Below, one piece after another: positions 9,005 through 33,582 of a stretch of 33,582 nt of DNA. A program made the position numbers and the translations under genes. The DNA is from Promethearchaeota archaeon. Its GTDB lineage: Archaea; Asgardarchaeota; Lokiarchaeia; Sigyniarchaeales; SOKP01. The notes below the pieces were generated by a model. It did no database searches and was not told where the DNA came from. It saw only the letters and a program-made list of their open reading frames with translations. The stretch lies in assembly GCA_016930515.1 (NCBI GenBank), contig JAFGGO010000188.1, positions 1-33,582 on the forward strand, read 5' to 3'. Positions within the stretch are counted from its first letter, which is position 1; the number at the start of each line of letters is the position of its first letter.

Positions 9005-10216
9005 ATGATCGTTGATCCTAAACCCAAGAGCAAGGCGTTCGATTGGATTTCCACCCAGATGAAAAAAGGTGAGAAATTAGAGTTCGAACGGCTCGGGAAC
9101 TGGGTAATCGCGGGTTCGGGAAACTACGAAAAAACTCAGATCGACGGAAGGTACAGGGAAAGTTGCAACACTTATCGAGGGGCAATCACCTGCGAGCACC
9201 ACAAGACCGAAAGTCTGACGCCTCAATTCACGAGATGTCGCAAGTTTGACTGCGAAACCTGCTTTCCCGCCGCAGCCTCCGAAAAAGCGAGAGACATCGA
9301 ACAAAAATTGTTATCATTTAAGGAATCGGCAATGGATAAAGGAATCGACATTGGAAATTACGCAAGTATCGTCTTGACTTACAAGGCACCATTAACACAC
9401 CTAAAAACCTACGACGCCTTTAAAAAATTGAGACGGAAAGCAGGTTCGATCTTGAAAAGCAATGAACTTTTGGGTGGAGTAATCATTAATCACGCTTGGG
9501 TATTGAAGTGCGGTCATTGCAATCGGAAGCTAGCAGAGTGCCAATGCGAACAAACAAAACTGAAAGCCACAATTAATCACCACTTTCACGCCATCGGGTT
9601 TGGCTTCCTGACGCACTCGAAAGAGTTTCAGAAAAGAAATCCTGGTTGGGTGTACGTGAACCACGGCAGGCGAAAAAGCCTCCACGAAACCCTTTTTTAT
9701 TGCCTGAGCCACTGCGCGCTGTGGAGAAAACCAGACGGAAAATTATATCCCGCTTATGCATACTTCGGGTGGCTCAGCTCTCGCAAGTGCAGGATCGTGG
9801 ACATCAAAACCTCGTGGAGGGCTGTTAGATGCGGTCAATGCAAGAAAGAACTCAGGGAAATAACCGACGGGCTTTCTGTTTCGGGCGACTTACCTTTCTT
9901 CCCCGATAACACATCACTAAAAACGAAAGCCAAGAAGCTCGGAATCGCAATCGAAGGCAAGACGCCCAAAAAAATCAAGCTAGAAATACAAAAACGAGTG
10001 GTAAACAATCAAAATTTCAATTGCTCCCTCGACGAGAGCAGGGTGCGCTTTGGAAATCTCGTGAAATATCGCATCGTTTCGATAGCGTACGAGATAGCAG
10101 ACGTTCAGGATCTCAGAATTCTCATCAACCAGCTTCGCGCGTATAGAAAACGGGATCGAAAACGAGCGATAGAACTAGCAAAACTCGCTCTAAAAGCGAC
10201 TGGAGAATACGGATAG
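9005..10216 (+). CDS. HUH rolling-circle initiator/transposase-like endonuclease with Zn-finger motifs
   Basis: N-terminal C..CRKFDCETC, motif I SIVLTY, motif II HHFHAIGFG (HUH), motif III TLFYCLSH; extra CxxC pairs. Confidence 0.7.
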   Translation: MIVDPKPKSKAFDWISTQMKKGEKLEFERLGNWVIAGSGNYEKTQIDGRYRESCNTYRGAITCEHHKTESLTPQFTRCRKFDCETCFPAAASEKARDIEQKLLSFKESAMDKGIDIGNYASIVLTYKAPLTHLKTYDAFKKLRRKAGSILKSNELLGGVIINHAWVLKCGHCNRKLAECQCEQTKLKATINHHFHAIGFGFLTHSKEFQKRNPGWVYVNHGRRKSLHETLFYCLSHCALWRKPDGKLYPAYAYFGWLSSRKCRIVDIKTSWRAVRCGQCKKELREITDGLSVSGDLPFFPDNTSLKTKAKKLGIAIEGKTPKKIKLEIQKRVVNNQNFNCSLDESRVRFGNLVKYRIVSIAYEIADVQDLRILINQLRAYRKRDRKRAIELAKLALKATGEYG

Positions 10217-10227
10217 TCATGACTATC
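10212..10227. other. Perfect 16-bp palindrome GATAGTCATGACTATC over the HUH stop codon
   Basis: Direct reading; extends with one bulge to TACGGATAGTCATGACTATCGTA. Confidence 0.8.
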
Positions 10228-10257
10228 GTATATATTCATTGGAACGCACATTCAAAC

Positions 10258-10449
10258 TTACTTTTCATCTTCTCGTTTTCTAATATCTCTGATTCTCACT
10301 AATTCACGGAATTCCTGCTGTTTTTGCCTTATGATCTTTCTCCGCTCGACGATCCCTATCCTGTTTTTCCTCAGCAAGTCCTCCAATTTCTCGGTAAACT
10401 CTTCGAGCGTCAGGTTCTTGTCCATGACCGAGTCGTAGTCGATGCTCAC
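10258..10449 (-). CDS. Small helical protein (63 aa); its 5' ~47 codons form the core of the array repeat
   Basis: GTG start preceded by a GAGGTG SD; substitutions between copies are mostly synonymous. Confidence 0.6.
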   Translation of the reverse strand: MSIDYDSVMDKNLTLEEFTEKLEDLLRKNRIGIVERRKIIRQKQQEFRELVRIRDIRKREDEK

Positions 10450-10559
10450 TGTGTGGTAATCACCTCAACTAATCTGTTAAAACGACTTGTAACGTAATTT
10501 TACAAGGGTTATTTAAACGAAATATCGAGCCCGCCTTTATATGTGATTGCATTTCGAAA
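10309..10559. repeat. Array repeat R1 (full)
   Basis: GAATTCCTGCTG...GACCGAGTCGTAGTCGATGCTCAC...ATGTGATTGCATTTCGAAA. Confidence 0.95.
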
Positions 10560-10722
10560 GGAAGAATCGAGGAGTTTTATAAGATCCGTTCGGATTGATA
10601 GATAAACGACCATGTTTCGAAGGCAAGATAATGCAACGATAATAACAAATTCAAGGAGAAAATGCGATTGATGACTCTCGAGACCGAAGAATTCAACGAG
10701 AGAAGAACTTCCGAAATCGATC

Positions 10723-10760
10723 GATTCAGTTTCGTACCATTTACCTTTAAATACGAGATT
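10723..10760 (+). promoter_or_regulatory. Conserved promoter block GATTCAGTTTCGTACCATTTACCTTTAAATA (TATA box)
   Basis: Identical 31-mer also at 12899 and 30906, each ~50 bp upstream of a propeller gene. Confidence 0.7.
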
Positions 10761-10804
10761 CGTCTAATGAATATATAATAAAGACTAAATTGAAATTTAA
10801 AAAA

Positions 10805-12439
10805 ATGAAAAGTATAATTTCGAAGAATAGAACAATTTCAACGCTTTTTTTTACGATATTCCTTTTCTCTCTCTCACTTGGGTTCACGATATCTTTTGGA
10901 GGGATGATCAATGGAGATGCCAGGTACATTCCGATGAGTTCAAATGTTCTTAAAACTTCGCAATCTCCAGATTGGAGCTCGGAAAAGGTTGCAATATGCA
11001 CGAAAATAGGAGAGCAATATAAATCCGAATCAATAATTGACGAAGATGGGAATATATTCGTTGTATGGAGAGATAATAGAAATGATGTGGAATCTTTTGA
11101 TTGGGATATTTTCGTTCAAAAGATCAATTCTTCTACAGGAACAGTTCAATGGACGGAAAACGGCGTAGCTGTGTGTGTATCGTCCGAAGAACAGCATTCG
11201 TACAAGCTCATTAGTGATGGTGCTGGAGGGGTGATTATCGTATGGGAGGATTTTAGGAATGATTATTCAGACATTTACGCCCAAAGAATTGATCCTATTG
11301 GTAATCCCCTATGGACTCCAAATGGAACAATTGTGTGTAATTCCATTAGTTGTCAATATAATCCTGGCATTATAAACGATGGTTCTGGAGGTGCAATTAT
11401 TGTTTGGGAGGATTATAGAAGCGGAAGCGGAAAGTGTATTTACGCCCAGAGAATTAACTCCACGGGACACGCGCAGTGGACTGCAAACGGAACGGTAATC
11501 CGCGCTGAAACTGAAAGTCAAACTAATCCCATTTTAATCAATGACGGTTATAATAACGCCATAATTGCGTGGGTAGAATACTCCGATCCTAGCATCTTAT
11601 TTGTTCAAAAAATAAATTCCTCAGGACAACCACAATGGACACCTGAAGGAGTGATAATCAGTACCGATGTAGAAGGTTATCAATTCCACAAAATAATAAG
11701 TGACGGTCTTGGAGGCGCGATAATCACATGGGAAGATATAAGAGAAGGGGAAAATGACGAAAACATATATGCACAGAGATTAAACTCAAGTGGATATGAA
11801 CAATGGGCTTCGGGAGGTCTTTCTGTCTGCAATTCAACAAATAGTCAAACAAGTCCTTTTCTTATAAGCGATGGTTCTGGAGGAGCAATCATTATTTGGG
11901 AAGATGCAAGAAACGGTAATTACCATGATATTTACGCTCAAAAAATCAATCGAATAGGTCAAGAGCAATGGACCAACAATGGTGTAACAATTTGTTTTCC
12001 GTGGGCTCATTCGAGCTTTCACCAGTCTCAAAAGGCCACAGAATTTGTCTTGGGTTTGTGCGGTTTGGTTAGTGATGAAACAGGAGGCACCATTATATCT
12101 TGGAAAGAGTGGAACGGAAACACGGGAAGAATCTATGCACAAAAAATTGATACTAAAGGCAACACCCAATGGAAAACAAATGGTGCTACAGTTTATACAG
12201 GATATTCGGTATCGAGTATGAATTTAGTTAGCGATGGTTCTGGGGGAGCCGTTGTTATCTGGGCAGAATCATCATATCCAGATATTTACTGCAAGCACAT
12301 TCCGTCTCAGGGATTTCCAGAATCCTCTGCAATAGCGGGATATGAATTACATATTATATTGGCGTCTTTGGGAATCGTAATGGTCGTGATTGGAATTTTA
12401 AGAATTAAAAAACGGAATTTTCAACACGAACTCTTTTAA
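10805..12439 (+). CDS. Surface beta-propeller-like repeat protein 1 (N-terminal TM/signal, Loki-CTERM-like anchor)
   Basis: ~57-aa repeats SDGxGGAIIVWEDxR...DIYAQRINSxG..QW..NG; C-terminal IAGY+TM+basic tail. Confidence 0.85.
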   Translation: MKSIISKNRTISTLFFTIFLFSLSLGFTISFGGMINGDARYIPMSSNVLKTSQSPDWSSEKVAICTKIGEQYKSESIIDEDGNIFVVWRDNRNDVESFDWDIFVQKINSSTGTVQWTENGVAVCVSSEEQHSYKLISDGAGGVIIVWEDFRNDYSDIYAQRIDPIGNPLWTPNGTIVCNSISCQYNPGIINDGSGGAIIVWEDYRSGSGKCIYAQRINSTGHAQWTANGTVIRAETESQTNPILINDGYNNAIIAWVEYSDPSILFVQKINSSGQPQWTPEGVIISTDVEGYQFHKIISDGLGGAIITWEDIREGENDENIYAQRLNSSGYEQWASGGLSVCNSTNSQTSPFLISDGSGGAIIIWEDARNGNYHDIYAQKINRIGQEQWTNNGVTICFPWAHSSFHQSQKATEFVLGLCGLVSDETGGTIISWKEWNGNTGRIYAQKIDTKGNTQWKTNGATVYTGYSVSSMNLVSDGSGGAVVIWAESSYPDIYCKHIPSQGFPESSAIAGYELHIILASLGIVMVVIGILRIKKRNFQHELF

Positions 12440-12484: not shown

Positions 12485-12734
12485 AAATTCCTGCTGTTTT
12501 TGCCTTATGATCTTTCTCCGCTCGACGATCCCTACCCTGTTCTTTCGCAAAAAATCCTCCAATTTCTCGGTAAATTCCTCGAGCGTCAGGTTCTTGTCCA
12601 TGACCGAGTCATAGTCGATGCTCACTTGATAACACCACCTCAACTAAAACGATATTTTGCCTTGTAATAGCATTCTACAAGGGTTATTTAAAAAGAAGAT
12701 CGAGTCATCGTATATATGTGATTGCATTTCGAAA
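12485..12734. repeat. Array repeat R2 (full)
   Basis: Aligns with R1 end to end. Confidence 0.95.
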
Positions 12735-12898
12735 GGAAAAACGCGAGTGGTTTATGAAGTTTGGTTCTCAGTGAATAATAAACAATCGAACTTGACGAGC
12801 GAGAATTAACAATGAGGACGCTAAAATGGAAGTAAAACCGAGAAGAACGCTTGAAACAATCGAGAAATTAGACGGAAAAAGAAGGCACACAAACGATC

Positions 12899-12980: not shown

Positions 12981-14801
12981 ATGAAAACGAAAACTTCGAA
13001 AAAAAACATCCATATTAAGTTCTTGTTATCGATACTCCTCATATTTCTTGCCCTTGGATTTTTTTCTAATTTAGGCGTTTTAAACCCCGAGAACGATGAA
13101 AACAAACTGATGGATTCAAATCTTAAAACTTCCCAATCCGTTCATTGGGATTCACGTGAGGTTGCTATATGCACGGAAGACGGAGATAAGTATTATTTTA
13201 CATCAATCTACGACGAATTGGGCTCGAGCTTTATCGCGTGGACTGATCAGAGGGACGAAAGTGAAGATAGGTTGTATCTGCAAAAGCTCAATTCGTCCAC
13301 GGGACAAGTTCAGTGGATCGAAAACGGCTTGTTAATTTCTAATAATGTTATGTATCATGATGGAGCATATATGATTAGTGATGGTGCTGGTGGAGTCATC
13401 ATTGCGTGGGAAGACCATAGAACAGGAAGCGCTGACAAGTACGGCGATATCTACGCCCAGAGAGTTAATTCTACTGGAGATATTCTTTGGACAACTGGTG
13501 GCGTGGCAATCTGTTCCACTAACGATTCTCAATGTCAACCTCATATCGTTAGCGATGGATGTGGTGGTGCAATTATCACGTGGTCTGATGGAAGGAATGG
13601 AGCATATAATTACGATATTTACGCCCAAAGAATCAATTCAACGGGACACACGCAATGGATTGCAAACGGAACAGCCGTTTGTAACGAATTGAACTCTCAA
13701 GTTTACCATGCGGTCGTTAGCGACGGATTGGGAGGGGCAATCGTATTATGGCAAGTTTATCTTGAATTAAACGACGCTCTTTTTGCCCAAAGAATCAACT
13801 CCACCGGAAATGTGCAATGGATCGAGGAGGGCGTTAAAATATCCGATTACCTCGGATCTTGGGGCAATTTTCAATTAATTAGCGACAACAATGGAGGCGC
13901 AACCACAGTCTGGCTTGATTGGGAGAATGGACAGTTTAATCCGAAGGTTTACGCACAGAAAATAGATTCAAATGGGACCTTGCAATGGGGGAATTATGGC
14001 ATCCCAGTTTGTACATCAACGGGGAATCAAAATGCTCCAAGAATCATAGGAGACGGGGATGAAGGCGTCATCATCTTGTGGAAGGACGATAGAAACGGAA
14101 ATTACAATATATACGCTCAAAAAATTAATCTTAATGGTGAAGAACAATGGACTCACGATGGCGTTAAAATATGCAATCCAAAATTAGTTTATTCATTAAA
14201 TTTGGTTAGCGATGGGACTGGAGGAGCCATTATTGCGTGGTTAGAATGGAGCGGAAACACGGGAAGAATTTACACTCAGAGAATCGATGACGAAGGTAAT
14301 ACAAAATGGACTCCTAATGGTGTTGCTGTCGTGACGGCATCTGGGATGGAGCGCATGTCATTAGTTAGTAACGGGCTTGGTGGTGCGATCGTATTCATGA
14401 ATAAATACGAGTACCCTTATAATAACATATACGCTCGTTGCATTCCTCACGAGGGCATTGCCAATCCATCTTCTAATCTCGAATTAATCTTGATCATAGT
14501 ACTTTCAATTGTGATAATTTCGATCATAGCAGTGAGTATTTTCGTGGTTCTTAAAAAACGAAAAGCTGGAAAACTCTCTGGTGAAGCAGCTCGCGATAAG
14601 ACCATAGAAAAATTTATGAAAAAGCATAATAGACAAACTCTTGATCCTGATTTTAGGTTAGGATTAGCGCGTCATTACCAAGATAAGGGAGATATCGATC
14701 AAGCGATTCTTAATTACAATATAGTACTCGAGTTAGACCCAGACAATCAAGAAGCCCGAGCGAGCTTGAATTCCATCAACCCTCTCAATCACGAATCCTA
14801 A
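12981..14801 (+). CDS. Surface propeller-like protein 2 with TM and a post-TM TPR
   Basis: Same repeats; TM LILIIVLSIVIISIIAVSIFVVL; TPR LGLARHYQDKGDIDQAILNYNIVLELDPDNQEA. Confidence 0.85.
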   Translation: MKTKTSKKNIHIKFLLSILLIFLALGFFSNLGVLNPENDENKLMDSNLKTSQSVHWDSREVAICTEDGDKYYFTSIYDELGSSFIAWTDQRDESEDRLYLQKLNSSTGQVQWIENGLLISNNVMYHDGAYMISDGAGGVIIAWEDHRTGSADKYGDIYAQRVNSTGDILWTTGGVAICSTNDSQCQPHIVSDGCGGAIITWSDGRNGAYNYDIYAQRINSTGHTQWIANGTAVCNELNSQVYHAVVSDGLGGAIVLWQVYLELNDALFAQRINSTGNVQWIEEGVKISDYLGSWGNFQLISDNNGGATTVWLDWENGQFNPKVYAQKIDSNGTLQWGNYGIPVCTSTGNQNAPRIIGDGDEGVIILWKDDRNGNYNIYAQKINLNGEEQWTHDGVKICNPKLVYSLNLVSDGTGGAIIAWLEWSGNTGRIYTQRIDDEGNTKWTPNGVAVVTASGMERMSLVSNGLGGAIVFMNKYEYPYNNIYARCIPHEGIANPSSNLELILIIVLSIVIISIIAVSIFVVLKKRKAGKLSGEAARDKTIEKFMKKHNRQTLDPDFRLGLARHYQDKGDIDQAILNYNIVLELDPDNQEARASLNSINPLNHES

Positions 14802-14862: not shown

Positions 14863-15112
14863 AAACTCTTGGGTCTTAACGCGTATGATCTTTCTCCGCT
14901 CGACGATCCCTATCCTGTTCTTCCGAAGCAAATCTTCCAATTTCTCGGTAAACTCCTCCAAGGTTAAATTCTTGTCCATGACCGAGTCGTAGTCGATGCT
15001 CACTGTGTGGTAATCACCTCAACTATTCTGTTAAAACGACTTGTAATGTAATTTTACAAGGTTTTTTAAATAAGACATCGAGTCATCGTATATATGTGAT
15101 TGCATTTCGAAA
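14863..15112. repeat. Array repeat R3 (full)
   Basis: Aligns with R1. Confidence 0.95.
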
Positions 15113-15207
15113 AGAGCGTAAATGCATTAAAAATTAACAAATGAAACAATAAGCGTTCAAGAAGACAAATATATAAGATTAAATAATTAATTTTATATTA
15201 GTGATCG

Positions 15208-15435
15208 ATGATGAGTAAGATTACGAAAAAGGACTTACACGACCTTATTGAACGAATGCCAGAAGGATTTACATTAGAAGACCTGCAATATCGCTTGTTT
15301 GTCCTTCAAAAGTTGGAGAAAGCAGAAGCGCAACTGAAACAAGGACAAAAAACGACAACGCTCGACGAGATGAGAGATTTGGTAAAACAATGGCGCGGTG
15401 AAATGGAACAAGGAAATACCAGGAACGTTCAATAA
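15208..15435 (+). CDS. Putative antitoxin of a RelE/ParE pair
   Basis: LIERMPEGFTLEDLQYRLFV; paralogous to 21001, 27303 and 28024; lies upstream of the toxin. Confidence 0.7.
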   Translation: MMSKITKKDLHDLIERMPEGFTLEDLQYRLFVLQKLEKAEAQLKQGQKTTTLDEMRDLVKQWRGEMEQGNTRNVQ

Positions 15436-15451
15436 AAAAAATCACTAAAAA

Positions 15452-15736
15452 ATGATTGAAATCCGCTTTCACCCGATTGCAACCGAAGACATGAGGGACA
15501 TTTACACCTATCACGCTCAATTTTCCTTGCAATACGCCGATTCTCTTATAGAAGGGCTTTTAAACACGATAGAAGTTCTCAGAGAGTTCCCCGAAATAGG
15601 TCGAAAATACCCAGAGAACGAACTATATCGTCAATTAATTTATCAAAATTACAGAATCATATACAAATTCGATAAACAAGAAAATAAAATCATCGTGATG
15701 ATCATCGTGCATTGTTCTCGACAATTAAGAATCTAA
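15452..15736 (+). CDS. RelE/ParE family toxin
   Basis: ATEDMRDIYTY...LREFPEIGR...NYRIIY...IVH. Confidence 0.85.
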   Translation: MIEIRFHPIATEDMRDIYTYHAQFSLQYADSLIEGLLNTIEVLREFPEIGRKYPENELYRQLIYQNYRIIYKFDKQENKIIVMIIVHCSRQLRI

Positions 15737-15740
15737 AGGT

Positions 15741-15902
15741 CTCGAGCGTTAAATTCTTGGTTGTCCGTGACCGATTCGTGGTCGATGCTCACTGTTTCAA
15801 CACCACCTCAACCAATCTATAGTTAAGCCTTGTAATGCTATTTTGCAATGGCTTTTTAAACGAAATATCGGGTTGTCCTTTACATGTGATTGCATTTAGA
15901 AA
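15741..15902. repeat. Array repeat R4 (right part only; 4-bp insertion variant)
   Basis: CTCGAGCGTT...CTTGGTTGTCCGTGACC...ATGTGATTGCATTTAGAAA. Confidence 0.9.
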
Positions 15903-16072
15903 GAGAAAATTAAGAGTTTTTCAAGATGATTTTAAAGAAAATTAAAGTAGTCATTACAAATGAGTTAAATTTATAATTTAGCTAGCGCTGGAGGATTTGG
16001 TCAAGATCCTAATGGTTATATGGAGCAAAAACATAAATATTTTGAACTTATAACATAAAATGAAGAAAACTT

Positions 16073-16303
16073 ATGACAACCATACCTGTTGATAAAGAAT
16101 TTTTAGACGATTTGATCGATTTCAAGTTGAAAGCTCTCAAGGAAGAGGTAAATAAAATCCTAGAAAGATGGGATTATAAATCGTCGAACTTATTTCTCCA
16201 GCACGCCATGGACGGTACGATCAACGAAGCAGAAGAGGATGCAATTATATTAAAAAATCTTCAAGATCAAATTCTTGATTTAACGAATAAAAAACAAGAA
16301 TAA
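16073..16303 (+). CDS. Putative antitoxin partner of the DUF6516-like protein
   Basis: Small acidic helical ORF (ERWDYKSSNLF) directly upstream of 16314. Confidence 0.5.
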   Translation: MTTIPVDKEFLDDLIDFKLKALKEEVNKILERWDYKSSNLFLQHAMDGTINEAEEDAIILKNLQDQILDLTNKKQE

Positions 16304-16313
16304 CAGGATTCAA

Positions 16314-16646
16314 ATGAACGCTTTAGAAAAGCTTAATATTGCCAAACTCTTGCTGGAGGAATATTTGGAAAACCTTATCATATCAATATCTGTTAATTAC
16401 GATTTCAAGCGAATCCATGTCCTTTTGAAGGACGGTGTTAACATATACATCGTTTATAACAACCACGAAGAATACAGCTATTCCGTTATTTTTTCCAAAC
16501 TAGAGCTCGATCGTTGTAGGTTTGATAATTACGACAAGGTTTGGGACGTTCCTTCTCGACCGCATCATTTTCATCCAAGATTTAAAAACGAAGCTGTTCA
16601 AAGCAGCATGACGGGCGACCCAAATCAAGACATCCCTCTTATGTAA
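16314..16646 (+). CDS. DUF6516/TumE-like putative toxin
   Basis: YSY...RFDNYD...RPHHFH motif. Confidence 0.6.
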   Translation: MNALEKLNIAKLLLEEYLENLIISISVNYDFKRIHVLLKDGVNIYIVYNNHEEYSYSVIFSKLELDRCRFDNYDKVWDVPSRPHHFHPRFKNEAVQSSMTGDPNQDIPLM

Positions 16647-16703: not shown

Positions 16704-16813
16704 GAATTCCTGCTGTTTCTGCCTTATTATCTTGCGCCGCTCGACGATCCCTATCCTGTTTTTCCTCAACAAATCCTCCAATTTCTCGGTGAATTTCTCG
16801 AGCGTCAAGTTCT
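16704..16813. repeat. Array repeat R5 (left part only)
   Basis: GAATTCCTGCTG...GAGCGTCAAGTTCT, then homology stops. Confidence 0.9.
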
Positions 16814-16823
16814 TTTTATAATT

Positions 16824-17186
16824 TTACCTAATCCGTATGTTATTTTCTGAAATAATGATTAGTTTATTTAGATATTTATTTTGCTTTAAATCAATATTTT
16901 GCAAGGCTTTTTCTAAAAGCGCATTTGTTGCTTTTGGATGAGGTGATACAACTTGAAGCACTATGATTAATGGTGGTGTCCCCTGAAAAAAGCGATGGAG
17001 CACGCCGAATCCTCTATCGTGAGTTAAGATCGGCAATTTTTTTAAGATAGCGTGTTCAAAAATTTTCTCGTCTTCGATTCCAGCCTGTAAAATATCTTCG
17101 ATTTTTAAAACTTTAAATCCAGCTTTAATCAAGCAGGAAATTGTTGATTTAGCCAGACATTCGTCAACAATTATTTCCATCGACAT
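16824..17186 (-). CDS. DUF5615 family PIN-like toxin
   Basis: IIVDECL...DEKIFEHA...ILTHDRGFG. Confidence 0.85.
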   Translation of the reverse strand: MSMEIIVDECLAKSTISCLIKAGFKVLKIEDILQAGIEDEKIFEHAILKKLPILTHDRGFGVLHRFFQGTPPLIIVLQVVSPHPKATNALLEKALQNIDLKQNKYLNKLIIISENNIRIR

Positions 17187-17198
17187 CCCATTAAATGG

Positions 17199-17441: not shown

Positions 17442-17524
17442 TAATTATAAAAAAAATCGATCAAATAAACCTTACTATATTCTTAGAGTTAAAATTGACA
17501 AAATTAATATTATAAAACTTACGA

Positions 17525-17714: not shown

Positions 17715-17768
17715 AATTCCAGTTTTATGCCAGATGGATTTTTATTTCTAATAAATAATAAGAATGAT

Positions 17769-24951: not shown

Positions 24952-26859
24952 ATGAACAAAATAGAAAGAAAGTTCCAGAGAAAAAAGATCAAGAGATTAA
25001 AAGGAAAACAAATAAAAACAGGAATTTTATTAATTTTATTTCTTGTATTTCCATTAATAATGACTATTAATCTAGTGCTTGAAATTAATTTCATTGATTC
25101 AGAGAAAATTGAAAACCTTTATCTGAAAAATTCTTTAAGCGTAGCATGGGAAGACGATGGTACATTAATCCATTCTACGACGGAAATTATCTATGATTAC
25201 CAAATGATAACTGATGGTGAAGGTGGTGTGATCATCTCTTGGGCTGACGATAGGAGTAGTGATATCGATATTTATGCTCAAAAGATCAATTCTGAGGGTC
25301 AAATACAATGGGAAGCAAACGGTACGGTCGTGTGTAATGTATCGGGAATTCAATTCAAACCACAAATAGTTAGTGACGGTGAAGGCGGTGCAATAGTGAT
25401 CTGGGAACATTGGGGCACATATTATAAGGATCTTTACGCTCAAAGAATCAATTCCATTGGACAACTTCAATGGAACATTAATGGGGTTCCGATTTGCACT
25501 GCGTATAACAACCAAAGGAATCATCAAGTCATTAGCAATGGCCAAGGTGGTGCAATCATTGTCTGGGAGGACGAAAGAACAGGGGATTATAATTACGACA
25601 TTTACGCTCAATGCATAAATTCGACGGGTTATTTACAATGGATCTCTGATTGTGCTGTTTGTACCTCAGAAAACATACAAAAAAACCCATGCTTATCTTG
25701 CGATGGCGAAGGTGGTGCCGTGATTGTTTGGCAAGATAATCGGAGCCAGAACGGATTTGACATTTACGCACAACGGATAAATCTTGAAGGACTTGCTCAA
25801 TGGATTCCAAACGGAGTCGTTATTTGCAGCGATTTAGGAACGCAAGGAGAAATTCAAATCACCAATATTAGCTCGGAAGGCGTTGCGATCGCGTGGAGCG
25901 ACGATAGAAACGGAAACCTTGATATATACGCACAATTCGTTAACATGTCTGGAATCTCACAATGGTCCGAAAACGGCACGATTGTTTGTAACGCGCAAGA
26001 AGATCAAATTTCTCCACAAATCTGTAGTGATGGTTCTGGGGGCGCAATTATGACTTGGGAAGATTATAGAACTCCCTACGATGCTTACGAGTGGAGCAAC
26101 ATTTACGCCCAGAAAATGGATTCTAATGGCAACGCGCAATGGACTCCGAACGGTTTTACCGTATGTAATAACATTATGCCTCAATTACGCCCCAAGATCG
26201 TTAGCGACGGCTCTGGAGGCGCAATTATAGCTTGGGAAGATATGAGACGCGGAACTCACGCTATTTACGCCCAGTGGGTAAATTCATCAGGTTATTCAAA
26301 ATGGGTCAGTAACGGCACGAATATATGTGGAACATATACCATTCAATATAATATACAACTTGTTAGCGACGGTTCTGGTGGGGCGATCATAGCGTTGCAG
26401 GGAGCAGAAGATGCTTGGAGTTACTTCATTGCTCAACGGAAACGACCAAACGACGCTCCTTCAGTTAAAATCCATCCCGAAGATTTCATCGTTTCCACTA
26501 AATACCCCAGTACGATTATTTGGTCTTTAACCGATGATTCTGGTTTAGGAGAATATCGAGTGATCGCAAATGACTCTTCGGGAAATTATAACACGAAAGT
26601 AGACTGGACTATTTGGAGGAACGATGAGTATCTCTACGTTTATCCCGAAAATTTAGCTTTAGGCGTTTTTAATTTTACGATAGAATATCGCGACAATGAT
26701 GGAGAGTTTGGTCAACCAGACACGGTTATAATAACAGTAACTTACAATGTTACAAGACCGATACCTGGATATGATTCGACGATCACTATTTTTGTATTAA
26801 TTATTTCAGTTTTATCAATTGTTATCATATTCATTCAAAAAGAACAACTCAAGTATTAG
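24952..26859 (+). CDS. Surface propeller-like protein 5 with an Ig-like domain and Loki-CTERM-like anchor
   Basis: Repeats; NDAP...DTVII domain homologous to that of protein 3; IPGY+TM. Confidence 0.85.
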   Translation: MNKIERKFQRKKIKRLKGKQIKTGILLILFLVFPLIMTINLVLEINFIDSEKIENLYLKNSLSVAWEDDGTLIHSTTEIIYDYQMITDGEGGVIISWADDRSSDIDIYAQKINSEGQIQWEANGTVVCNVSGIQFKPQIVSDGEGGAIVIWEHWGTYYKDLYAQRINSIGQLQWNINGVPICTAYNNQRNHQVISNGQGGAIIVWEDERTGDYNYDIYAQCINSTGYLQWISDCAVCTSENIQKNPCLSCDGEGGAVIVWQDNRSQNGFDIYAQRINLEGLAQWIPNGVVICSDLGTQGEIQITNISSEGVAIAWSDDRNGNLDIYAQFVNMSGISQWSENGTIVCNAQEDQISPQICSDGSGGAIMTWEDYRTPYDAYEWSNIYAQKMDSNGNAQWTPNGFTVCNNIMPQLRPKIVSDGSGGAIIAWEDMRRGTHAIYAQWVNSSGYSKWVSNGTNICGTYTIQYNIQLVSDGSGGAIIALQGAEDAWSYFIAQRKRPNDAPSVKIHPEDFIVSTKYPSTIIWSLTDDSGLGEYRVIANDSSGNYNTKVDWTIWRNDEYLYVYPENLALGVFNFTIEYRDNDGEFGQPDTVIITVTYNVTRPIPGYDSTITIFVLIISVLSIVIIFIQKEQLKY

Positions 26860-26916: not shown

Positions 26917-27001
26917 AATTTCTGAGTCTTTTGCTTTATGATCTTTCTCCGCTCGACGATCTCTATCCTGTCTTTCCTCAGTAAATCCTCGGGCTTTTCG
27001 G
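26917..27001. repeat. Array repeat R11 (left part only)
   Basis: AATTTCTGAGTCTTTTGC...GTAAATCCTCGGGCTTTTCGG. Confidence 0.85.
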
Positions 27002-27030
27002 AAAAAGAGTTTGAACTTTTTCAGAAAAAG

Positions 27031-27315
27031 TTAAAATCTAACAATTCTACTTCCGTGAACGACAATTAAAATTTCGATAAATTCTTTCCCAATTTCGTAT
27101 ACAATTCTATAATCCTTATGAAAGAATTCTCTTAGCGTTTCTTCATTTTTATCTGGAAACTTGCGTCCCATATATGGAAAGTCTTTTAGTTGTTCTATTT
27201 TTTTAAATATTTCTTTAACAAAATTCTTTGCTCTCTTGGGTGAATCTTTTGAAATATAGGACGAAATATTCTCAAGATCTTCCAAGGCACCGGTTGAAAA
27301 TCTCACTCCAACCAT
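27031..27315 (-). CDS. RelE/ParE family toxin
   Basis: ALEDLENISSYISKDSP...FPYMGR...YRIVYEI...VHGSR. Confidence 0.9.
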   Translation of the reverse strand: MVGVRFSTGALEDLENISSYISKDSPKRAKNFVKEIFKKIEQLKDFPYMGRKFPDKNEETLREFFHKDYRIVYEIGKEFIEILIVVHGSRIVRF

Positions 27316-27488
27316 TTTTTCATCCGATCCTTGGCATTTTCAAGGGAGATATGCTGTCCGCTTTCAATTTGTTGTCGTGCTCTATCGATTTTATCGTTAA
27401 GGTATAGTTTATAAGCTATTTCTTCGATACTTAAATCTTCTGGTAATTCCCGAATAAAATCTATCGCAATTTCTTTTGTTGAAGGCAT
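27303..27488 (-). CDS. Putative antitoxin
   Basis: FIRELPEDLSIEEIAYKLY...KW. Confidence 0.75.
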   Translation of the reverse strand: MPSTKEIAIDFIRELPEDLSIEEIAYKLYLNDKIDRARQQIESGQHISLENAKDRMKKWLE

Positions 27489-27637: not shown

Positions 27638-27736
27638 GAGTTTCTGCGCTTTCTGGCGCACGATCTTTCTCCGCTCGACGATCCCTATCCTGTCTTTCCT
27701 CAGTAAATCCTCCAATTTCTCGGTATACTCTTCGAG
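27638..27736. repeat. Array repeat R12 (left part only)
   Basis: ...GATCTTTCTCCGCTCGACGATCCC...TACTCTTCGAG, then homology stops. Confidence 0.85.
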
Positions 27737-27751: not shown

Positions 27752-28036
27752 TTATAATCTCAGCAAACGACTTCCGTGAAAAACCGAGATAATTTCAACA
27801 AGATCGTCCACGATTCGATATATAATTCTATAGTTTTGAAATAATAATTCGCGAATAAGAGCGTTGTTAAGTTCTGGTACGATCCTTCCAATTTTTGGAA
27901 ATTCTACTAGTTTTTGAACCGAATCGTATAACTTATTGATAAAAATTTTCGCATACGCTGCTGAATCGCGTGCGATGTAATCCTTGATCTCACTTAAATC
28001 TTCAATGGAACGATCTGTCCATTCTAATCAAACCAT
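27752..28036 (-). pseudogene. RelE/ParE toxin with TGA at codon 3 (absent from the ORF track)
   Basis: MV*LEWTDRSIEDLSEIKDYIARDS...FPKIGRIVPEL...NYRIIYR...FHGSRLLRL. Confidence 0.85.
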
Positions 28037-28209
28037 TTTTCGATTACTTCTTTGGCTTTTTCGTTCGATACTTTCTTTCCCTCGTCTGCGTCTTTTAAAC
28101 CACGAAGTATTTTTTCTCTAGCGTATAAATGATACATGATGTCTTCTACGGAAACATCATCGGGAAGATCCTTTATCATTTGAATAATATTTTCTTTTTC
28201 TGTTGCCAT
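28024..28209 (-). CDS. Putative antitoxin
   Basis: MATEKENIIQMIKDLPDDVSVEDIMYHLY...KWFD. Confidence 0.75.
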   Translation of the reverse strand: MATEKENIIQMIKDLPDDVSVEDIMYHLYAREKILRGLKDADEGKKVSNEKAKEVIEKWFD

Positions 28210-28355
28210 GATACAGTCCTCAAGTAAAATATCAAAATCAAATATAATAAACCTATTGATTTTATATATTATAAAATTCATGTATGAAAAGTCATGCTTC
28301 CTCTTTCAATAAATATGGGAAAAATAAAGCCCATTGCAAAAAATTCAAGAGAAAT

Positions 28356-28609
28356 AAATTCTTGCTGTTTCTGGCGTATGATCTTTCTCCGCTCGACCAT
28401 CCCTATCCTGTTCTTTCGCAGCAAATCCTCCAATTTCTCGGTAAACTCCTTGAGCGTCAGGTTCTTGGTTGTCCGTGACCGAGTCGTAGTCGATGCTCAC
28501 TTGATATAACTACCTCAACCAATCTTTAGTAACGCCTTGTAGTACCATCCTACCAAGGCTATTTAAAAAGAATATCGGGTTAACCTATATATGTGATTGC
28601 ATTTCGAAA
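28356..28609. repeat. Array repeat R13 (full; 4-bp insertion variant)
   Basis: Aligns with R1. Confidence 0.95.
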
Positions 28610-28697
28610 AGAAGAGAAATAAAGGAGTTTTTCAAGATCCTTTCTAAACGATCAATAAACATGGAGAACTTGGTAAAGAAACGCTTAGATTTATAAG

Positions 28698-28718
28698 TAT
28701 GCAATGCATATTTGCATA
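28698..28718. promoter_or_regulatory. Inverted repeat TATGCAA-N7-TTGCATA, putative TA operator
   Basis: Lies between a TTTATAA TATA-like box and the antitoxin ATG. Confidence 0.5.
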
Positions 28719-28719
28719 T

Positions 28720-28950
28720 ATGAGAACGAGCATAATCATTGACGATTCCATGAAAGACAAGTGGTGGGACATTAAAAAGGAAGCTGCGAGGTTAAACATG
28801 AAAATCAGCGAATATATCGTTTTTTGCCACGAAATTAGGAAGAAAAACGAGACAAAAGACAAGTTACTTGAAATTTTAGGAAATCCTCTCGAGAATGGAG
28901 CGAAAAACATCGACGCCATTGCTGCAAGCAAGAACACGTGGAAAACATGA
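28720..28950 (+). CDS. Antitoxin (RHH-like)
   Basis: MRTSIIID...WWDIKKEAARLNMKISEYI; ATGA overlap with vapC. Confidence 0.7.
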   Translation: MRTSIIIDDSMKDKWWDIKKEAARLNMKISEYIVFCHEIRKKNETKDKLLEILGNPLENGAKNIDAIAASKNTWKT

Positions 28951-29354
28951 AAGGAATCGATTCAAACGTCATCATTTATGCCCTTAACAAGGACTTGCCC
29001 GAGCACGAACCTTGCAGGGTCCTCCTCGAAAAAGTAGCCAAGGGACTTGAAACTATTGCCATCCCTGCCGTCGTTTTGATGGAGAGTTACCACGTTCTCG
29101 TGAGAGCGTATAAATTCGCGCCTTCTGAAGTAAAAAAACGCTTGGTTTCTATCATTGAATCCGAAAACATAACCATATTGGGACAGGGATTATCTTCGAT
29201 CTTGCTGGCGTTTGATGTTGCCGAGGATTTCGACACGGGCGGGCGCGATTCGCTCATAGCAGCCTGTCTATTGGAAAACAACATCAAGGAAATTTATTCT
29301 CACGATAGCGATTTTGATAAAATTCGACTAATAAAAAGAATTGATCCTGTCTAA
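28947..29354 (+). CDS. vapC: VapC PIN toxin
   Basis: IDSNVIIY...VLMESY...RDSLIAA...IYSHDSDFD. Confidence 0.9.
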   Translation: MKGIDSNVIIYALNKDLPEHEPCRVLLEKVAKGLETIAIPAVVLMESYHVLVRAYKFAPSEVKKRLVSIIESENITILGQGLSSILLAFDVAEDFDTGGRDSLIAACLLENNIKEIYSHDSDFDKIRLIKRIDPV

Positions 29355-29385: not shown

Positions 29386-29635
29386 AAACTCCTGCTGTTC
29401 CTGTCGGATGATCTTCCGTCGCTCGACGATGCCGACCTTGTTCTTTCTCAGCAGGTCCTCGAGCTTTTCGGTGAACTCTTCGAGCGTCAGGTTCTTGTCC
29501 ATGACCGAGTCGTAGTCGATGCTCACTTGATTACACCACCTCAACCAATCTTTAGTTACGCCTTGTAGTAGCGTTCTACCAAGGCCATTTAAAAATAACA
29601 TCGGGTTAGCCTTTATATGTGATTGAATTTCGAAA
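29386..29635. repeat. Array repeat R14 (full; many synonymous differences)
   Basis: Aligns with R1. Confidence 0.95.
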
Positions 29636-29746
29636 ACGAGTAGTGTTTAATAATATAGGTTTTAAGAAATTTTAGAAACAAAGAACGAATAAACCAATAT
29701 TAAAGAAGAATAGAGGCAAAAGAGATGATTGGTAATATTTATTAAA

Positions 29747-29785: not shown

Positions 29786-30043
29786 GTGTTTAAAACGACT
29801 GAGAAATTAACGCAGAAAGTATCTTCAAATGGGAGGATAGTAATACCCAAGGAGTGGAGGGATAAATTAGCCATCGATGATACCAATTTAGTTGAAATGG
29901 AATTAAACGACGATAATGTAATTCTAATCAGAAAAAAGCTACACCCTCTCGAAATAGAGGATAACCTATTTGATGGAGTTTCTCCTTTCACGGACGAAGA
30001 ATTGGAAGATGTAAAAAAATCATTATTTCCAACTGAAGATTAA
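29786..30043 (+). CDS. AbrB/MazE/SpoVT-family antitoxin
   Basis: KVSSNGRIVIPKEWRDKLAI. Confidence 0.9.
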   Translation: MFKTTEKLTQKVSSNGRIVIPKEWRDKLAIDDTNLVEMELNDDNVILIRKKLHPLEIEDNLFDGVSPFTDEELEDVKKSLFPTED

Positions 30044-30058
30044 TTTATTTGAATTAAC

Positions 30059-30463
30059 ATGACAGAAAAAGCAGTAATTGATGCACAAGTCCTCTTTTAT
30101 TTCCATTACAATTATAAGAAAATCCCCATGATGCTTCAGGAACTGAAGAAAAAGGTAATTGAAGGAGAAATAACCGTAATAATTCCCACTATTGCTATTT
30201 CTGAATTGATTTGGAAAATGCGAAGGGCAGGCAAATTAGAAGCAGTTAAAAAAGCCGTAGAGAGATGGGAACAATCTGAAAATGTGATCATCGACAATTT
30301 TGACATGTCGATCGTAAAGTTTATGCTTAAAAACACTAAGAGTCACGAATTACACGATGAAATCATAGCCATGATATGTAAAAAATACGGTACGAGCATC
30401 ATTTATTCTACTGATAAAAAATTTAAAGAAATATTTAATTTGAATCTGAGATCTTGGAAATAG
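30059..30463 (+). CDS. PIN-domain (VapC-like) toxin
   Basis: AVIDAQV...IPTIAISEL...ELHDEIIA...IYSTDKKF. Confidence 0.85.
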   Translation: MTEKAVIDAQVLFYFHYNYKKIPMMLQELKKKVIEGEITVIIPTIAISELIWKMRRAGKLEAVKKAVERWEQSENVIIDNFDMSIVKFMLKNTKSHELHDEIIAMICKKYGTSIIYSTDKKFKEIFNLNLRSWK

Positions 30464-30491: not shown

Positions 30492-30739
30492 AAATTCCTG
30501 CGTTTTCTGGCGCACGATATTGCGCCGTTTGACGATCCCAATACGGTTCTTGCGGAGTAGATCTTCCAATTTCTCGGCAAACTCTTCGAGCGTCAGGTTC
30601 TTGTCCGTGACCGAGTCGTAGTCGATGCTCACTTGATAACACCACCTCAACCAACAAGTAATGACGCCATAATATCAAGTTAAAAGGGCTTTTTAAAAAG
30701 AAGATCGAGTCATCGTATAAATGTGATTGCATTTCGAAA
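30492..30739. repeat. Array repeat R15 (full)
   Basis: Aligns with R1. Confidence 0.95.
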
Positions 30740-30905
30740 AGGATGGAAAGCGAGGAGTTTATCAAGTCAGGTTCTCAATAAATAATAAACAACGAAACTT
30801 GACATGTGAGAATGAACGACGAGGACGAGAAAATGGAAGTAAAACCGAGAAGAACGCTTGGTACAATCGATATATTTAATGGATAGAGAAAGCACAAAAA
30901 CTTTT

Positions 30906-30936: not shown

Positions 30937-30991
30937 TCCATTAAAACTACATAATAACATACCAAAATGTTACAAAAATTTGGAACTAATA

Positions 30992-32614
30992 ATGAATATA
31001 ACAAGAAAAAAAAGAATAATCTTTCAATTTTTAATAGGATTCACTGTTTTATTTTCTATGGGGGTATTTTTTACTATTGGAACGATATATCAAGAAAATA
31101 CAGAAGTAAAAAATAATATAAACGAAATTGATCTCAAAGGATCTAGCATCGTGCCCAACAAGGCTAAAGGAGTCTTGATTTGTAATGCAGAGTTCTTCCA
31201 ATATTATCCAGTGATCGTTTCTGATGAAGATGGAGGAGCAATAATCGCCTGGCACGACGATAGAGAAGATAGATTGGAATACGACATATACGCACAGAGA
31301 ATAAATTCTTCGGGCCATCCACTGTGGAAGACAAACGGTACGGTGATATGCAATCTCCCAGGAGATCAAAACAGAATCCAATTGACTACGGATACTTTAG
31401 GTGGCGCCATAATTACTTGGCAAGATTTTAGGGAGTCTCCTGGTCGCGTTTACATTCAGCGGATAAACTCTTCAGGACATTGCCTTTGGGGTGCCAATGG
31501 AACTATCGTGAGCAATGCATCAGGGAGTCAAAAATATCCAAGATTAATTAGTGACGGAAATGGAGGGGCAATCGTTGTTTGGGAAGACTCTAGAAACGGT
31601 AACGAGGATATATATGTTCAAAAAATAAGCCCTGAAGGTCAATTGCTCTGGGGAGAAAACGGAACTGTCGTGTGCACGAGATCCGAAAAACAGACTTTTC
31701 CAATTATTATTTGCGACGGATCTAATGGTGCTATTATCGTTTGGGACGACGAAAGAAAAGGCGAGAATGACTGCGATATTTACGCACAACGAATAAATTC
31801 ATCAGGTACAGCGTGCTGGATTCTAAATGGAGTTTCGGTGTGCAACGCCTCTGGTAATCAATTTCTTGGTGATGTAATTAACGATAACAGTGGAAACGTG
31901 TATGCTACTTGGGAAGATCAGAGATCTGGCAGAGACATTTACATGCAAAAAATAGATCAAAACGGTTTCCTTCAATGGGATAGCAACGGTTTGGTAATTT
32001 GTAATGCACCTGGGGATCAAGGACATCCCAGCTTGATCTCAGACGGAGATGAGGGTGCAATCCTGATGTGGATCGACGGAAGAGGCGAAAATCTCTATCT
32101 TTGGGACATATACCTTCAAAACGTTAATTCTTCAGGAACTATCCAATGGACCTACAACGGAATTAAGCTTTGTAATTATGTGGGGTATAAATACCGTCCA
32201 GAACTAACAAGTGACGGTAACGGAGGCGCATTTATCACATGGGAGGATCACAGGACGGGTAATGGGAAAATTTACGCCCAGAAAATCAATTCATTAGGAA
32301 TGGAACAATGGAGAACAAATGGAGTGTGTATAGATTCCAAAGGATCCTCACAATCTACTCCAGAACTCGTAAGCGATGGTACAGGAGGAATTATTATCTC
32401 GTGGTGTGGTTCTGGGCCAGGAGCTAATAATATAGACATATACGCCCAGCGCTTGAATTCTGCTGGAACCTTACAATGGATTGATCCTGCCAATTCTGCA
32501 ATTCCCGGATTTGACATGACAATTACAAGTTTAATATTAATGTTTTCAATAATTTCAATCTGCTTGATACTTTTAATCGATAAGAAAAAACAATTTAATT
32601 CATTGAAAACATAA
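30992..32614 (+). CDS. Surface propeller-like protein 6
   Basis: Eight repeats; IPGF+TM+KKK. Confidence 0.85.
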   Translation: MNITRKKRIIFQFLIGFTVLFSMGVFFTIGTIYQENTEVKNNINEIDLKGSSIVPNKAKGVLICNAEFFQYYPVIVSDEDGGAIIAWHDDREDRLEYDIYAQRINSSGHPLWKTNGTVICNLPGDQNRIQLTTDTLGGAIITWQDFRESPGRVYIQRINSSGHCLWGANGTIVSNASGSQKYPRLISDGNGGAIVVWEDSRNGNEDIYVQKISPEGQLLWGENGTVVCTRSEKQTFPIIICDGSNGAIIVWDDERKGENDCDIYAQRINSSGTACWILNGVSVCNASGNQFLGDVINDNSGNVYATWEDQRSGRDIYMQKIDQNGFLQWDSNGLVICNAPGDQGHPSLISDGDEGAILMWIDGRGENLYLWDIYLQNVNSSGTIQWTYNGIKLCNYVGYKYRPELTSDGNGGAFITWEDHRTGNGKIYAQKINSLGMEQWRTNGVCIDSKGSSQSTPELVSDGTGGIIISWCGSGPGANNIDIYAQRLNSAGTLQWIDPANSAIPGFDMTITSLILMFSIISICLILLIDKKKQFNSLKT

Positions 32615-32659
32615 AATCTTTTTTTTCATTAAATATAAAAAAGTCAATGGAGAGGTACG

Positions 32660-32770
32660 AAATTCCTGAGTCTTTTGCCTTATTATCCTTCTCCGATCGA
32701 CGATCCCTATCCTGTTTTTCCTCAGCAAGTCCTCCAATTTCTCGATAAACTCTTTTAAAGTCAAGATTCT
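32660..32770. repeat. Array repeat R16 (left part only)
   Basis: AAATTCCTGAGTC...GTCAAGATTCT. Confidence 0.85.
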
Positions 32771-32780
32771 CATTAAAATA

Positions 32781-33131
32781 TCAATTTTTTTCACGAAAAA
32801 CAGGACCTTCTTTTTCCAATAATAACAATTTCTCTTCAAGGACCTTTACATTCAAGGAACCAATTAATTCTTCAAAAACAGGAAGTACATTTTCGTCTAT
32901 TAATGGATGGATGCTAATTACTACTAAAAAATGTTGTCTTCCGTGCTTAAAATAGATAAAATCCTTGTCATAACTAATAAGAATTCTCCGTTCTCTTCGA
33001 GCTAATTCCATTAATTCGCTATTCTTTATCCCTTTCTTGCCTAAATCTTGAACGGTGACCGTGTCGTGTCCTGAATTTATCAAGAGTTTTTTAAGGTTAT
33101 TGGAAACATTTTCGTCTAATAGAAATCTCTA
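32781..33131 (-). pseudogene. DUF5615 PIN-like toxin with TAG at the expected start codon
   Basis: *RFLLDENVSNNLKKLLINSGHD...ILISYDKDF; the ORF-track start at 33083 would lose the conserved N-terminal D-E-N motif. Confidence 0.7.
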
Positions 33132-33135
33132 TCTT

Positions 33136-33360
33136 TCATGTGTGGGTACTGTTTCGTTCCTCAAGAGTCATTCGGGCATATCCTATAGCAGTAGCTATGT
33201 CTTCTCGAGATAATTGCGGATAGGCATCGATAATTTCATCGAAAGTCTTTCCCGCTTCTAACCATTCGAGAATCAGATCGATCATTATTCTCGTGCCTTT
33301 TATTCGAGGCTTTCCGTGGCAGATATCAGGATCGATTTCTATCTTGCTATTTTGCATCAT
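33136..33360 (-). CDS. DUF433 antitoxin
   Basis: IEIDPDICHGKPRIKGTRI...AYPQLSREDI. Confidence 0.9.
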   Translation of the reverse strand: MMQNSKIEIDPDICHGKPRIKGTRIMIDLILEWLEAGKTFDEIIDAYPQLSREDIATAIGYARMTLEERNSTHT

Positions 33361-33488
33361 ACTATGAATATCATCTTCAGATTCTAATTAATATTTTACC
33401 ATTCATACACGATGGAGTTAAAAATTGAAATTCATTCGATAAATAATATCGAATTATCAAGGTATCGATTTCAATCGATAAAATAGAT

Positions 33489-33582
33489 AAATTCCTGCGT
33501 TATTGGCGCACGATCTTGCGCTGCACGACGATCTATACCATGTTTTTCCGCAGCAGGTCCTCGAACTTTTCGGTAAACTCCT
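33489..33582. repeat. Array repeat R17 (cut by the window end)
   Basis: AAATTCCTGCG...TTCGGTAAACTCCT. Confidence 0.9.

Follow-up and report, generated by a model that had tools for sequence, protein, structure and literature searches.

The stretch of DNA analyzed here (the window) is the whole of a 33,582-nt contig, C66 (GenBank accession no. JAFGGO010000188.1), from the metagenome-assembled genome (MAG) of a Lokiarchaeial archaeon (assigned to Promethearchaeota/Lokiarchaeia through named homologs; 4.0 Mb; 94% complete; 5.3% contamination); it carries a gene for an HUH rolling-circle initiator protein (Rep), followed by a long row of repeats that separate toxin-antitoxin (TA) pairs and surface-protein genes. 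An nhmmer search with a profile built from full copies of the repeat (model positions below are coordinates in that profile) identified 17 co-oriented copies between 10310 and 33582 (E-values, 1e-12 to 1e-82) and none to the left of 10310. Nine are full (~250 bp), five keep the left part only (those at 16705, 23695, 26917, 27639, and 32661), two are mainly right part (15736 and 17518), and one (33490) is clipped by the contig end; the count and direct orientation given in an earlier note on this window therefore stand, but the length of ~250 bp applies to only nine of the 17. Partial copies stop at model 77 to 110 or begin at 57 to 116, so the breakpoints vary. Repeat 1 begins 94 bp past the HUH stop codon (10216), in agreement with the ~90 bp first estimated. 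The small gene to which the repeats belong and the repeats themselves are as follows.

10258..10449, minus strand: conserved ~60-aa gene, the only full-length copy in the genome; its 3' tail (~10258-10300) is part of the right end of the HUH element
10310..10563: repeat 1, full; codons 47 to 1, Shine-Dalgarno (SD) sequence, promoter region with a 7-8 bp inverted repeat, divergent promoter region
12486..12738: repeat 2, full; reading frame ends after codon 47
14864..15115: repeat 3, full
15736..15906: repeat 4, right part only (model 88-253)
16705..16814: repeat 5, left part; the right part has decayed, and the end of a DUF5615 gene runs over it
17518..17715: repeat 6 (model 57-250)
20444..20696: repeat 7, full
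21324..21577: repeat 8, full
23695..23771: repeat 9, left part, to model 77
24598..24854: repeat 10, full, with a stop codon and an insertion of 4 bp
26917..27005: repeat 11, left part
27639..27736: repeat 12, left part
28357..28613: repeat 13, full; 4-bp insertion
29387..29639: repeat 14, full
30493..30743: repeat 15, full
32661..32765: repeat 16, left part
33490..33582: repeat 17 (model 1-94; contig C37 begins at model 96)

On its minus strand, the repeat reads as the front of the small gene, with a TATA-like box, an SD sequence, a GTG start, and codons 1 to 47. Copy 1 alone goes on into a native-type C-terminal tail; the remaining copies enter unrelated sequence directly past codon 47. In congeners G002, G004, and G005, the small gene is single copy and chromosomal, flanked by epimerase-like and HEAT-like genes, and it occurs also in several other Lokiarchaeial genera; this native order is apparently broken in the genome studied here and in congener G003, and no full-length copy other than copy 1 was found. 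The copies differ mostly at synonymous sites (ratio of nonsynonymous to synonymous polymorphism [pN/pS], 0.13); stop-bearing copies and a shared 4-bp insertion, which shifts the frame, have nonetheless spread. The codon-47 edge is conserved as protein and not as DNA, with seven different 10-mers over its first 10 nt. Directly outside it, a purine-rich remnant was present in 9 of 16 copies, compared with 0 to 3 in control windows, which is consistent with one ancestral joint; a G-content test of this remnant, taken alone, gave p=0.09. Because the noncoding part of the repeat matches the region upstream of the native gene up to its divergent neighbor, it probably also drives plus-strand cargo; the right part of the repeat is retained ahead of cargo on the plus strand and in most cases missing ahead of cargo on the minus strand. 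GC content at third codon positions (GC3) is 0.63 to 0.85 in the stubs, 0.50 to 0.62 in the Rep element, 0.35 (median) in the host, and 0.23 to 0.25 in native orthologs; since the stub values lie far above host and native orthologs and nearer the Rep element, they suggest that a GC-rich version of the small gene was imported, the alternative being GC-biased conversion. Family searches matched the small protein to no known family, and it had no match in the Atlas. It resembles the C-terminal domain of a ~430-aa Lokiarchaeial protein (C47, 17755-19047; further loci for this likeness are L079, L080, and L083-L085), and in some genomes it follows a shorter homolog of that protein; it may be a split-off domain.

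The repeats are mosaic: the nearest-neighbor copy changes segment by segment, distances between repeat segments show near-zero correlation, and a PHI-type test gave p=0.0005. Long identical tracts lie at differing model positions (1-49, 106-162, ~53-152, and 150-194), and mosaicism at so many positions favors homology-driven stacking. For two cassettes outside the window, the cassette's own flanking repeats are mutual best matches. A fixed central crossover at model 88-98 was rejected, as partial copies stop at varied points, and an excess identity of adjacent copies was not significant. The circular cassette junctions that had been predicted were not seen in read contigs, which cannot show rare circles; one candidate joint, from 28771 to 19821, was rejected because it reflects mapping between paralogous PIN cassettes, and the sides of the other joints were under 30 nt.

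The cargo between the copies comprises six beta-propeller paralogs, 10 TA pairs, and one orphan small gene.

10790..12439, plus strand: membrane-anchored beta-propeller protein (predicted structure)
12981..14801, plus strand: propeller paralog with C-terminal TPR
15208..15736, plus strand: antitoxin and ParE toxin (Pfam)
16073..16646, plus strand: small gene and TumE-like toxin (Pfam, slightly below cut-off)
16824..17441, minus strand: DUF433 and DUF5615 (PIN-like) pair, also on C37 and in congener G003
17637..19676, plus strand: propeller paralog; true start probably downstream of the repeat
19790..20403, plus strand: decayed PIN pair, 81% identical to the pair at 28699-29354
21001..21201, minus strand: single small antitoxin-like gene of no family; likeness to 28024-28281 by eye
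21682..23334, plus strand: propeller paralog
23823..24514, minus strand: antitoxin and PIN toxin
24952..26859, plus strand: propeller paralog
27031..27488, minus strand: antitoxin and ParE; 82% identical copy on C37 with different neighbors
27752..28281, minus strand: antitoxin and ParE-like gene, a candidate toxin
28699..29354, plus strand: antitoxin and PIN; same cassette in congener G003 (76%)
29786..30463, plus strand: MazE/AbrB antitoxin and PIN
30980..32614, plus strand: propeller paralog
32781..33387, minus strand: second DUF433 and DUF5615 pair

The earlier note had read this cargo as surface propellers or TA pairs, and both parts of that reading were upheld: ParE, PIN, MazE/AbrB, DUF433/DUF5615, and TumE-like families are supported by Pfam, and the product of 10790-12439 is predicted to adopt a beta-propeller fold (single-sequence model with a pLDDT of 63; propeller proteins are its top matches, at a best E of 1e-10). 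All six propeller paralogs are membrane anchored, with a mutual identity of 32 to 47%, compared with 60 to 90% for the stubs. Repeats generally separate modules of one or two genes, as had been described; the interval 17715-20444, however, holds a propeller gene and the decayed PIN pair with no repeat between them. ParE, DUF433/DUF5615, PIN, and UPF0175 cassettes recur at 75 to 86% identity amid different neighbors on C66, on C37, and in G003, in keeping with the proposed cassette platform of variable order that has neither IntI nor attC. An identical 31-bp leader is found at 10723-10753 and 30906-30936, in propeller cassettes 1 and 15, with a similar one in cassette 2.

Within this genome, the only repeat matches found by nhmmer beyond C66 are on contig C37. 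The last copy on C66 stops at model 94, and C37 starts at model 96; the end of C66, one inferred base, and the start of C37 together match another C37 copy across 100 bp. Since the two repeat halves fit together, the array very probably continues for ~9 kb onto C37, where four further copies accompany three TA pairs, a cheBR-kinase-regulator block, and a PKD gene; jointly, C66 and C37 hold at least 21 copies across about 32 kb. No recombinase was found on the C37 part of the array, and no integrase or integrase remnant in the window, on C37, or across the about 32 kb; the tyrosine or serine recombinase for which the note had suggested inspecting the far end was thus not found on C37, although the true far end may lie beyond this contig. 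Contigs from one sequencing run (X1, possibly the source sample) span the partial copies at 15736 and 23695, and an identical 157-bp contig from a run of a separate study (X2) bridges the HUH stop codon and repeat 1. Also on C37 (L003, 7688-8847), a ~1.15-kb insertion with an unclassified 227-aa open reading frame (ORF) interrupts a DUF433 gene.

Genome and repeat scans found neither IntI nor attC, in agreement with what had been noted from the window. The sole PF00589 match in the 94% complete genome, on C90, is XerA (240 bits against a cut-off of 220; 97.5 bits as an integron integrase, for which the cut-off is 265), and attC ends (RYYYAAC...GTTRRRY, with a bottom-strand hairpin) were found in 0 of 11 repeats on either strand; folding z-scores of the repeats are mostly 0 to -1.8, with no strand bias. 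Two candidate sites within the repeat were rejected: the promoter inverted repeat as a dif/pdif-like core, since five copies lack it and it is homologous to the palindrome of the native promoter, and a pC194-like CTTGATA in four copies, which falls within the variable SD spacer and is not conserved. A metagenome scan with a 19-bp pattern returned seven chance matches, all without the repeat, and the scan of viral contigs with this pattern returned none; Rfam and ARAGORN scans found nothing. In those parts of the literature covered by a term search, Asgard mobilome papers included, we found no description of such arrays.

To the left of the array lie Rep and the genes of the element to which we assign it.

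2739..5132, plus strand: 797-aa uncharacterized protein, element backbone; homologs beside HUH homologs in L064, L066, and L067; GC3, 0.50
5162..6898, plus strand: membrane-anchored HerA/FtsK-like ATPase (DUF87, FtsK; CedD/VirB4-like below cut-off)
7141..8052, minus strand: SMODS/CBASS-like nucleotidyltransferase, defense cargo of the element; homolog near HUH in L060
8139..8810, minus strand: uncharacterized gene divergent from Rep; two ORFs here, one 274-aa ORF beside the C5 paralog
9005..10216, plus strand: HUH rolling-circle initiator of the Rep_1/IS91-like superfamily, with an N-terminal Zn finger and a single motif-III tyrosine, Y232
10220..10232, plus strand: 13-bp motif, consensus TAACTATCGTATA, directly behind the Rep stop codon

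The identification of this protein as an HUH endonuclease, already made from the window, was substantiated: H193, H195, Y232, C78, and C83 are invariant in 61 Rep homologs (C54, C63, and C86 nearly so), ESM neighbors (0.95 to 0.98) carry Rep_1 and Zn_Tnp_IS91, with PF01446 on 17 to 64% of the members of some clusters, and the top structural matches are HUH Reps, albeit weak ones (Z, 4.6 to 5.6; root-mean-square deviation, 3.5 to 3.8; ~100 residues aligned). Rep itself had no Pfam or NCBIfam match and no significant Foldseek match to the PDB. Position +4 from Y232 is H236, leaving no second motif-III tyrosine; motif III of IS91 holds two catalytic tyrosines, Y249 and Y253, and the single tyrosine indicates that Rep does not belong to the IS91 transposases (PMC5714925). 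An internal nick site in the Rep gene was rejected because three Rep stubs at L155, in a congener, start at different positions.

Homologs of Rep were found in 12 of 161 genomes of the class. The HerA-like ATPase is a recurrent partner of the family (near HUH genes in L008, L059, L061, L064, L065, and L158), and all of the recurring neighbors (this ATPase, the 797-aa gene, the SMODS gene, and the divergent gene) lie on the left here. Rep loci in other genera (10 genomes) had no such repeat and no comparable intergenic repeat array within up to 10 to 15 kb. Because its partners lie to the left and Rep loci elsewhere occur without the array, Rep is assigned, from gene context, to an integrase-free integrated element whose right end adjoins the 3' side of the Rep gene; the left end of the element was not found. 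The 13-bp motif sits likewise behind Rep on C5, on C101 (twice), and at L155, L004, and L011, and it is a candidate origin or end signal of the element.

Several further features of this region were observed. Paired GTAWTAC boxes, candidate operator or binding sites, are conserved upstream of Rep (8905-8925 in the window; L001, L004, L008, and L011), and part of the Rep 3' region (10094-10135) recurs at 8868-8909 as a perfect inverted copy of 42 bp, where homologs have one of the two boxes, reflecting either a recent rearrangement or an assembly slip. The CBASS-like cyclase at 7141-8052 has no obvious adjacent effector. The best NCBIfam match of the HerA-like gene, below cut-off, is the DNA-import ATPase CedD; in two congeners (L130 and L131) the gene lies between argH and a GTPase gene and is broken in one of them.

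The small gene also ties Rep to the array. Six Rep right ends of this clade are known to us, on C66, on C5, on C101 (twice), and at L155 (twice; in GCA_048941705.1, the better assembly of the congener), and all six continue into an antisense copy of the small gene's 3' tail. These tail copies vary mostly at third codon positions and score above 99% of background (BLOSUM scores of 19 to 31 for the five ends outside the window, with background reaching at least 22 in 0.25%). Outside the window, the tail is followed by a second copy of the 13-bp motif; in the window, a cassette stub stands in that place and completes the gene. With the tail in Rep ends and the stub in cassettes, the Rep element would give the tail of the gene and the cassettes its front. 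Judged from these sequences, the link is not a chance one, since the 3' tail is present in the Rep ends and the GC-rich codon use of the element is found in the repeats as well; a nonrandom association of HUH gene and array is thereby supported. Co-occurrence was partial: both array-bearing genomes hold the Rep clade, but the HUH homologs in the 10 genomes of other genera head no array. The 13-bp motif was not found in the repeats at up to one mismatch. In a congener, the array end abuts kinase, ABC transporter, and glutamate synthase genes, with no Rep and no intact small gene for 19 kb; a search for Rep ends in five congeners was empty, the G003 contig ending before that part.

Gene stubs also bound cargo at other loci. 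At L135 (C149, 1385-4158), partial copies of the 5' end of fadH, which stop at one and the same codon, enclose TA modules; on C159 (5995-6984), a TA islet is bounded by short direct repeats from the rps11 3' end; and on C63 (1693-2833) and C106 (7531-14274), TA islets or gene rows are bounded by a 98-bp repeat and a ~51-bp site, respectively. No Rep is near the fadH and rps11 arrays or the repeat-flanked TA pair on C63. At L155 (10444-17147), three internal Rep stubs and the two Rep right ends punctuate 185-aa paralogs and other cargo; these stubs have variable ends and form a second stub array, built on the Rep gene itself. On C101 (L002, 7996-9747), a 5'-truncated Rep has its 3' end duplicated around one 222-aa gene.

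In layout, the array is closest to the accretion of integrative and cis-mobilizable elements (IMEs and CIMEs) and to the ssrA tandems of Dehalococcoides, minus the integrases. As in the Streptococcus ICESt1-family IMEs and CIMEs (PMC5704250) and the ssrA islands (PMC3146451), foreign modules are stacked at a single conserved gene that stays whole at one end of the stack, and a partial copy of that gene bounds each module. Unlike these, it has no integrase or integration module and consists of about 21 small units instead of a few large islands; its stubs are the 5' end and promoter of a protein gene, ~250 bp long and mosaic, and the Rep element supplies the 3' tail. With respect to a crossover core of the IME/CIME kind, the edge is fixed at codon 47, yet the recombination signal runs along the entire repeat. 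With integrons and clusters of attC sites lacking an integrase (CALINs), archaeal ones included (PMC9668308), the array shares a long TA-rich row of one- or two-gene modules, variable neighbors, and an enzyme gene at its head; it differs in lacking IntI and attC, in a coding repeat that bears its own promoter region, and in cargo on both strands. IS91 and ISCR elements (PMC5714925) resemble the Rep element in an HUH protein with an N-terminal Zn finger, no terminal inverted repeats, a gene near the element end, and no integrase, whereas Rep has a single motif-III tyrosine, is accompanied by an ATPase and other backbone genes, is followed by an array, and has only candidate ori or ter sites. 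Motifs II and III, PF01446-bearing ESM neighbors, and, by weak structural matches, a likely RRM-like HUH fold are shared with Rep_1 (pC194/pUB110-type) initiators and the rolling-circle initiators of archaeal viruses and plasmids; unlike them, Rep has no Pfam match, and its Lokiarchaeial clade was found only integrated and, in this genus, tied to one small gene.

We favor, at about even confidence, a tandem accretion array on a protein-gene landing pad borne by the element. A cassette unit would consist of cargo plus the promoter region and first 47 codons of the small gene; a circle or an incoming stub-bearing fragment would recombine by homology with the intact gene or with another stub, the crossover falling anywhere in the ~250 bp, and cassettes would enter and leave in this way. 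The enzyme may be of the RadA type or have some other activity of low specificity; on repeats of ~100 bp, homologous-like activity is known for archaeal recombinases (PMC8371274). The gene would stay whole beside its tail while older cassettes were pushed outward and stubs converted one another and eroded; the divergent promoter of the stub would serve plus-strand cargo, so that it would be kept there and lost before minus-strand cargo, and TA pairs would oppose loss by pop-out. Rep would be the initiator of the integrase-free rolling-circle element on the left, with its HerA-like ATPase, 797-aa gene, and defense cargo; the right end of this element would supply the 3' tail, the element probably brought the GC-rich gene version and may spread the platform, and cutting of each repeat by Rep would be unnecessary. 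Several observations weigh against accretion by homology. The edge at codon 47 is sharp in 18 truncated copies, which come from two species, and the tail carried by the Rep ends starts no more than about 10 nt away (an exact zero overlap was rejected, the alignment being ambiguous across about 10 nt); together, these make site-specific recombination a simpler explanation. Overall, neighboring copies in the window resemble each other no more than distant copies do (permutation p=0.45), and recent pop-in is therefore not a general pattern. The two array-bearing genomes both have the Rep clade, intact or as stubs, while three congeners with the native gene, a small and related sample, have neither array nor Rep, and the first joining of new cargo to a stub is left unexplained.

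That Rep itself is the cassette recombinase, nicking at the codon 47/48 edge, displacing one strand across stub and cargo, and rejoining, in cis or in trans, either at the edge that follows or in the intact gene, with homologous conversion merely blurring the copies afterwards, is possible but rather unlikely. A fixed one-sided edge is usual in HUH strand transfer, and the fixed edge of the repeat is one-sided. The tail in all six Rep right ends, the bracketing of cargo by Rep ends on C101 and at L155, the lack of an integrase near either array end, and a stub GC3 that resembles the element and not host or native orthologs point the same way, and HUH enzymes are able to recombine nick sites (PMC5714925). 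The seven 10-mers at an edge conserved as protein speak against it, as do the missing 13-bp motif, four intervals bounded by copies that lack the edge, and the Rep-free arrays at other genes and at the congener array end; the earlier note had counted arrays without the HUH gene against its model, and these two cases bear that out in part. By analogy with IS91 and ISCR, moreover, cargo would be expected upstream of the Rep gene, not behind it. The mechanism as first proposed, in which the HUH protein nicks in one repeat and terminates at the next, is not supported, given that the repeat is kept as protein, that breaks vary and copies are mosaic, and that the 13-bp motif was not found in the repeats. 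We consider it unlikely that Rep is a site-specific integrase at codon 47/48 for its own element and for nonautonomous cassettes, which would make the array an HUH-based integron analogue whose attachment site is a protein-coding gene. Quite unlikely is a CIME-type, site-specific accretion at a core near codons 46 to 50 through a tyrosine or serine recombinase that has since been lost or that acts in trans (host XerA), with the 5' end of the gene replaced by cassettes and its 3' end by the Rep element: two kinds of element do break the small gene at nearly the same place, the layout is known from the IME/CIME and ssrA tandems, and XerA is present, but no integrase remnant was seen in the array, the edge has no dif-like 11-6-11 inverted repeat (PMC8371274), and the 7-8 bp promoter inverted repeat fails as a core on the grounds given above. 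Plain tandem duplication and divergence of a promoter and small-gene unit, with selection keeping 47-aa products and promoters and no mobility, would account for the low pN/pS, the retained SD and TATA sequences, the right part kept with plus-strand cargo, and the six paralogous propeller genes; the spread of stop-bearing and frameshifted copies, unrelated cargo families, propellers far less alike than stubs, and the same cassettes beside different neighbors render it very doubtful. A classical integron or CALIN, or a chimera of collapsed repeats, is highly improbable, and both are largely refuted. Asgard archaea show an enrichment of integrons, which hold TA cassettes (PMC9668308), and the MAG is fragmented and contaminated, with contigs that break inside repeats; the repeats, however, lack attC ends and fold into weak hairpins, the sole tyrosine recombinase is XerA, divergence among the copies is too great for collapse, the Rep junction and two partial copies are bridged by read contigs, and a second species has the same architecture.

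Read cautiously, the locus is a >30-kb integrase-free superintegron analogue in an Asgard archaeon, in which addiction modules and variable surface proteins are kept behind a gene stub; such arrays would escape standard integron finders. Taken with the stub arrays at fadH, at rps11, and of the Rep gene, it suggests a general way in which Lokiarchaeia acquire genes. The analysis also delineates a family of Rep elements that is uncatalogued, lacks an integrase, and has the 13-bp motif as a candidate origin. If Rep does the recombining, the array would represent a new class of cassette system and a lead to a programmable single-stranded-DNA integrase.

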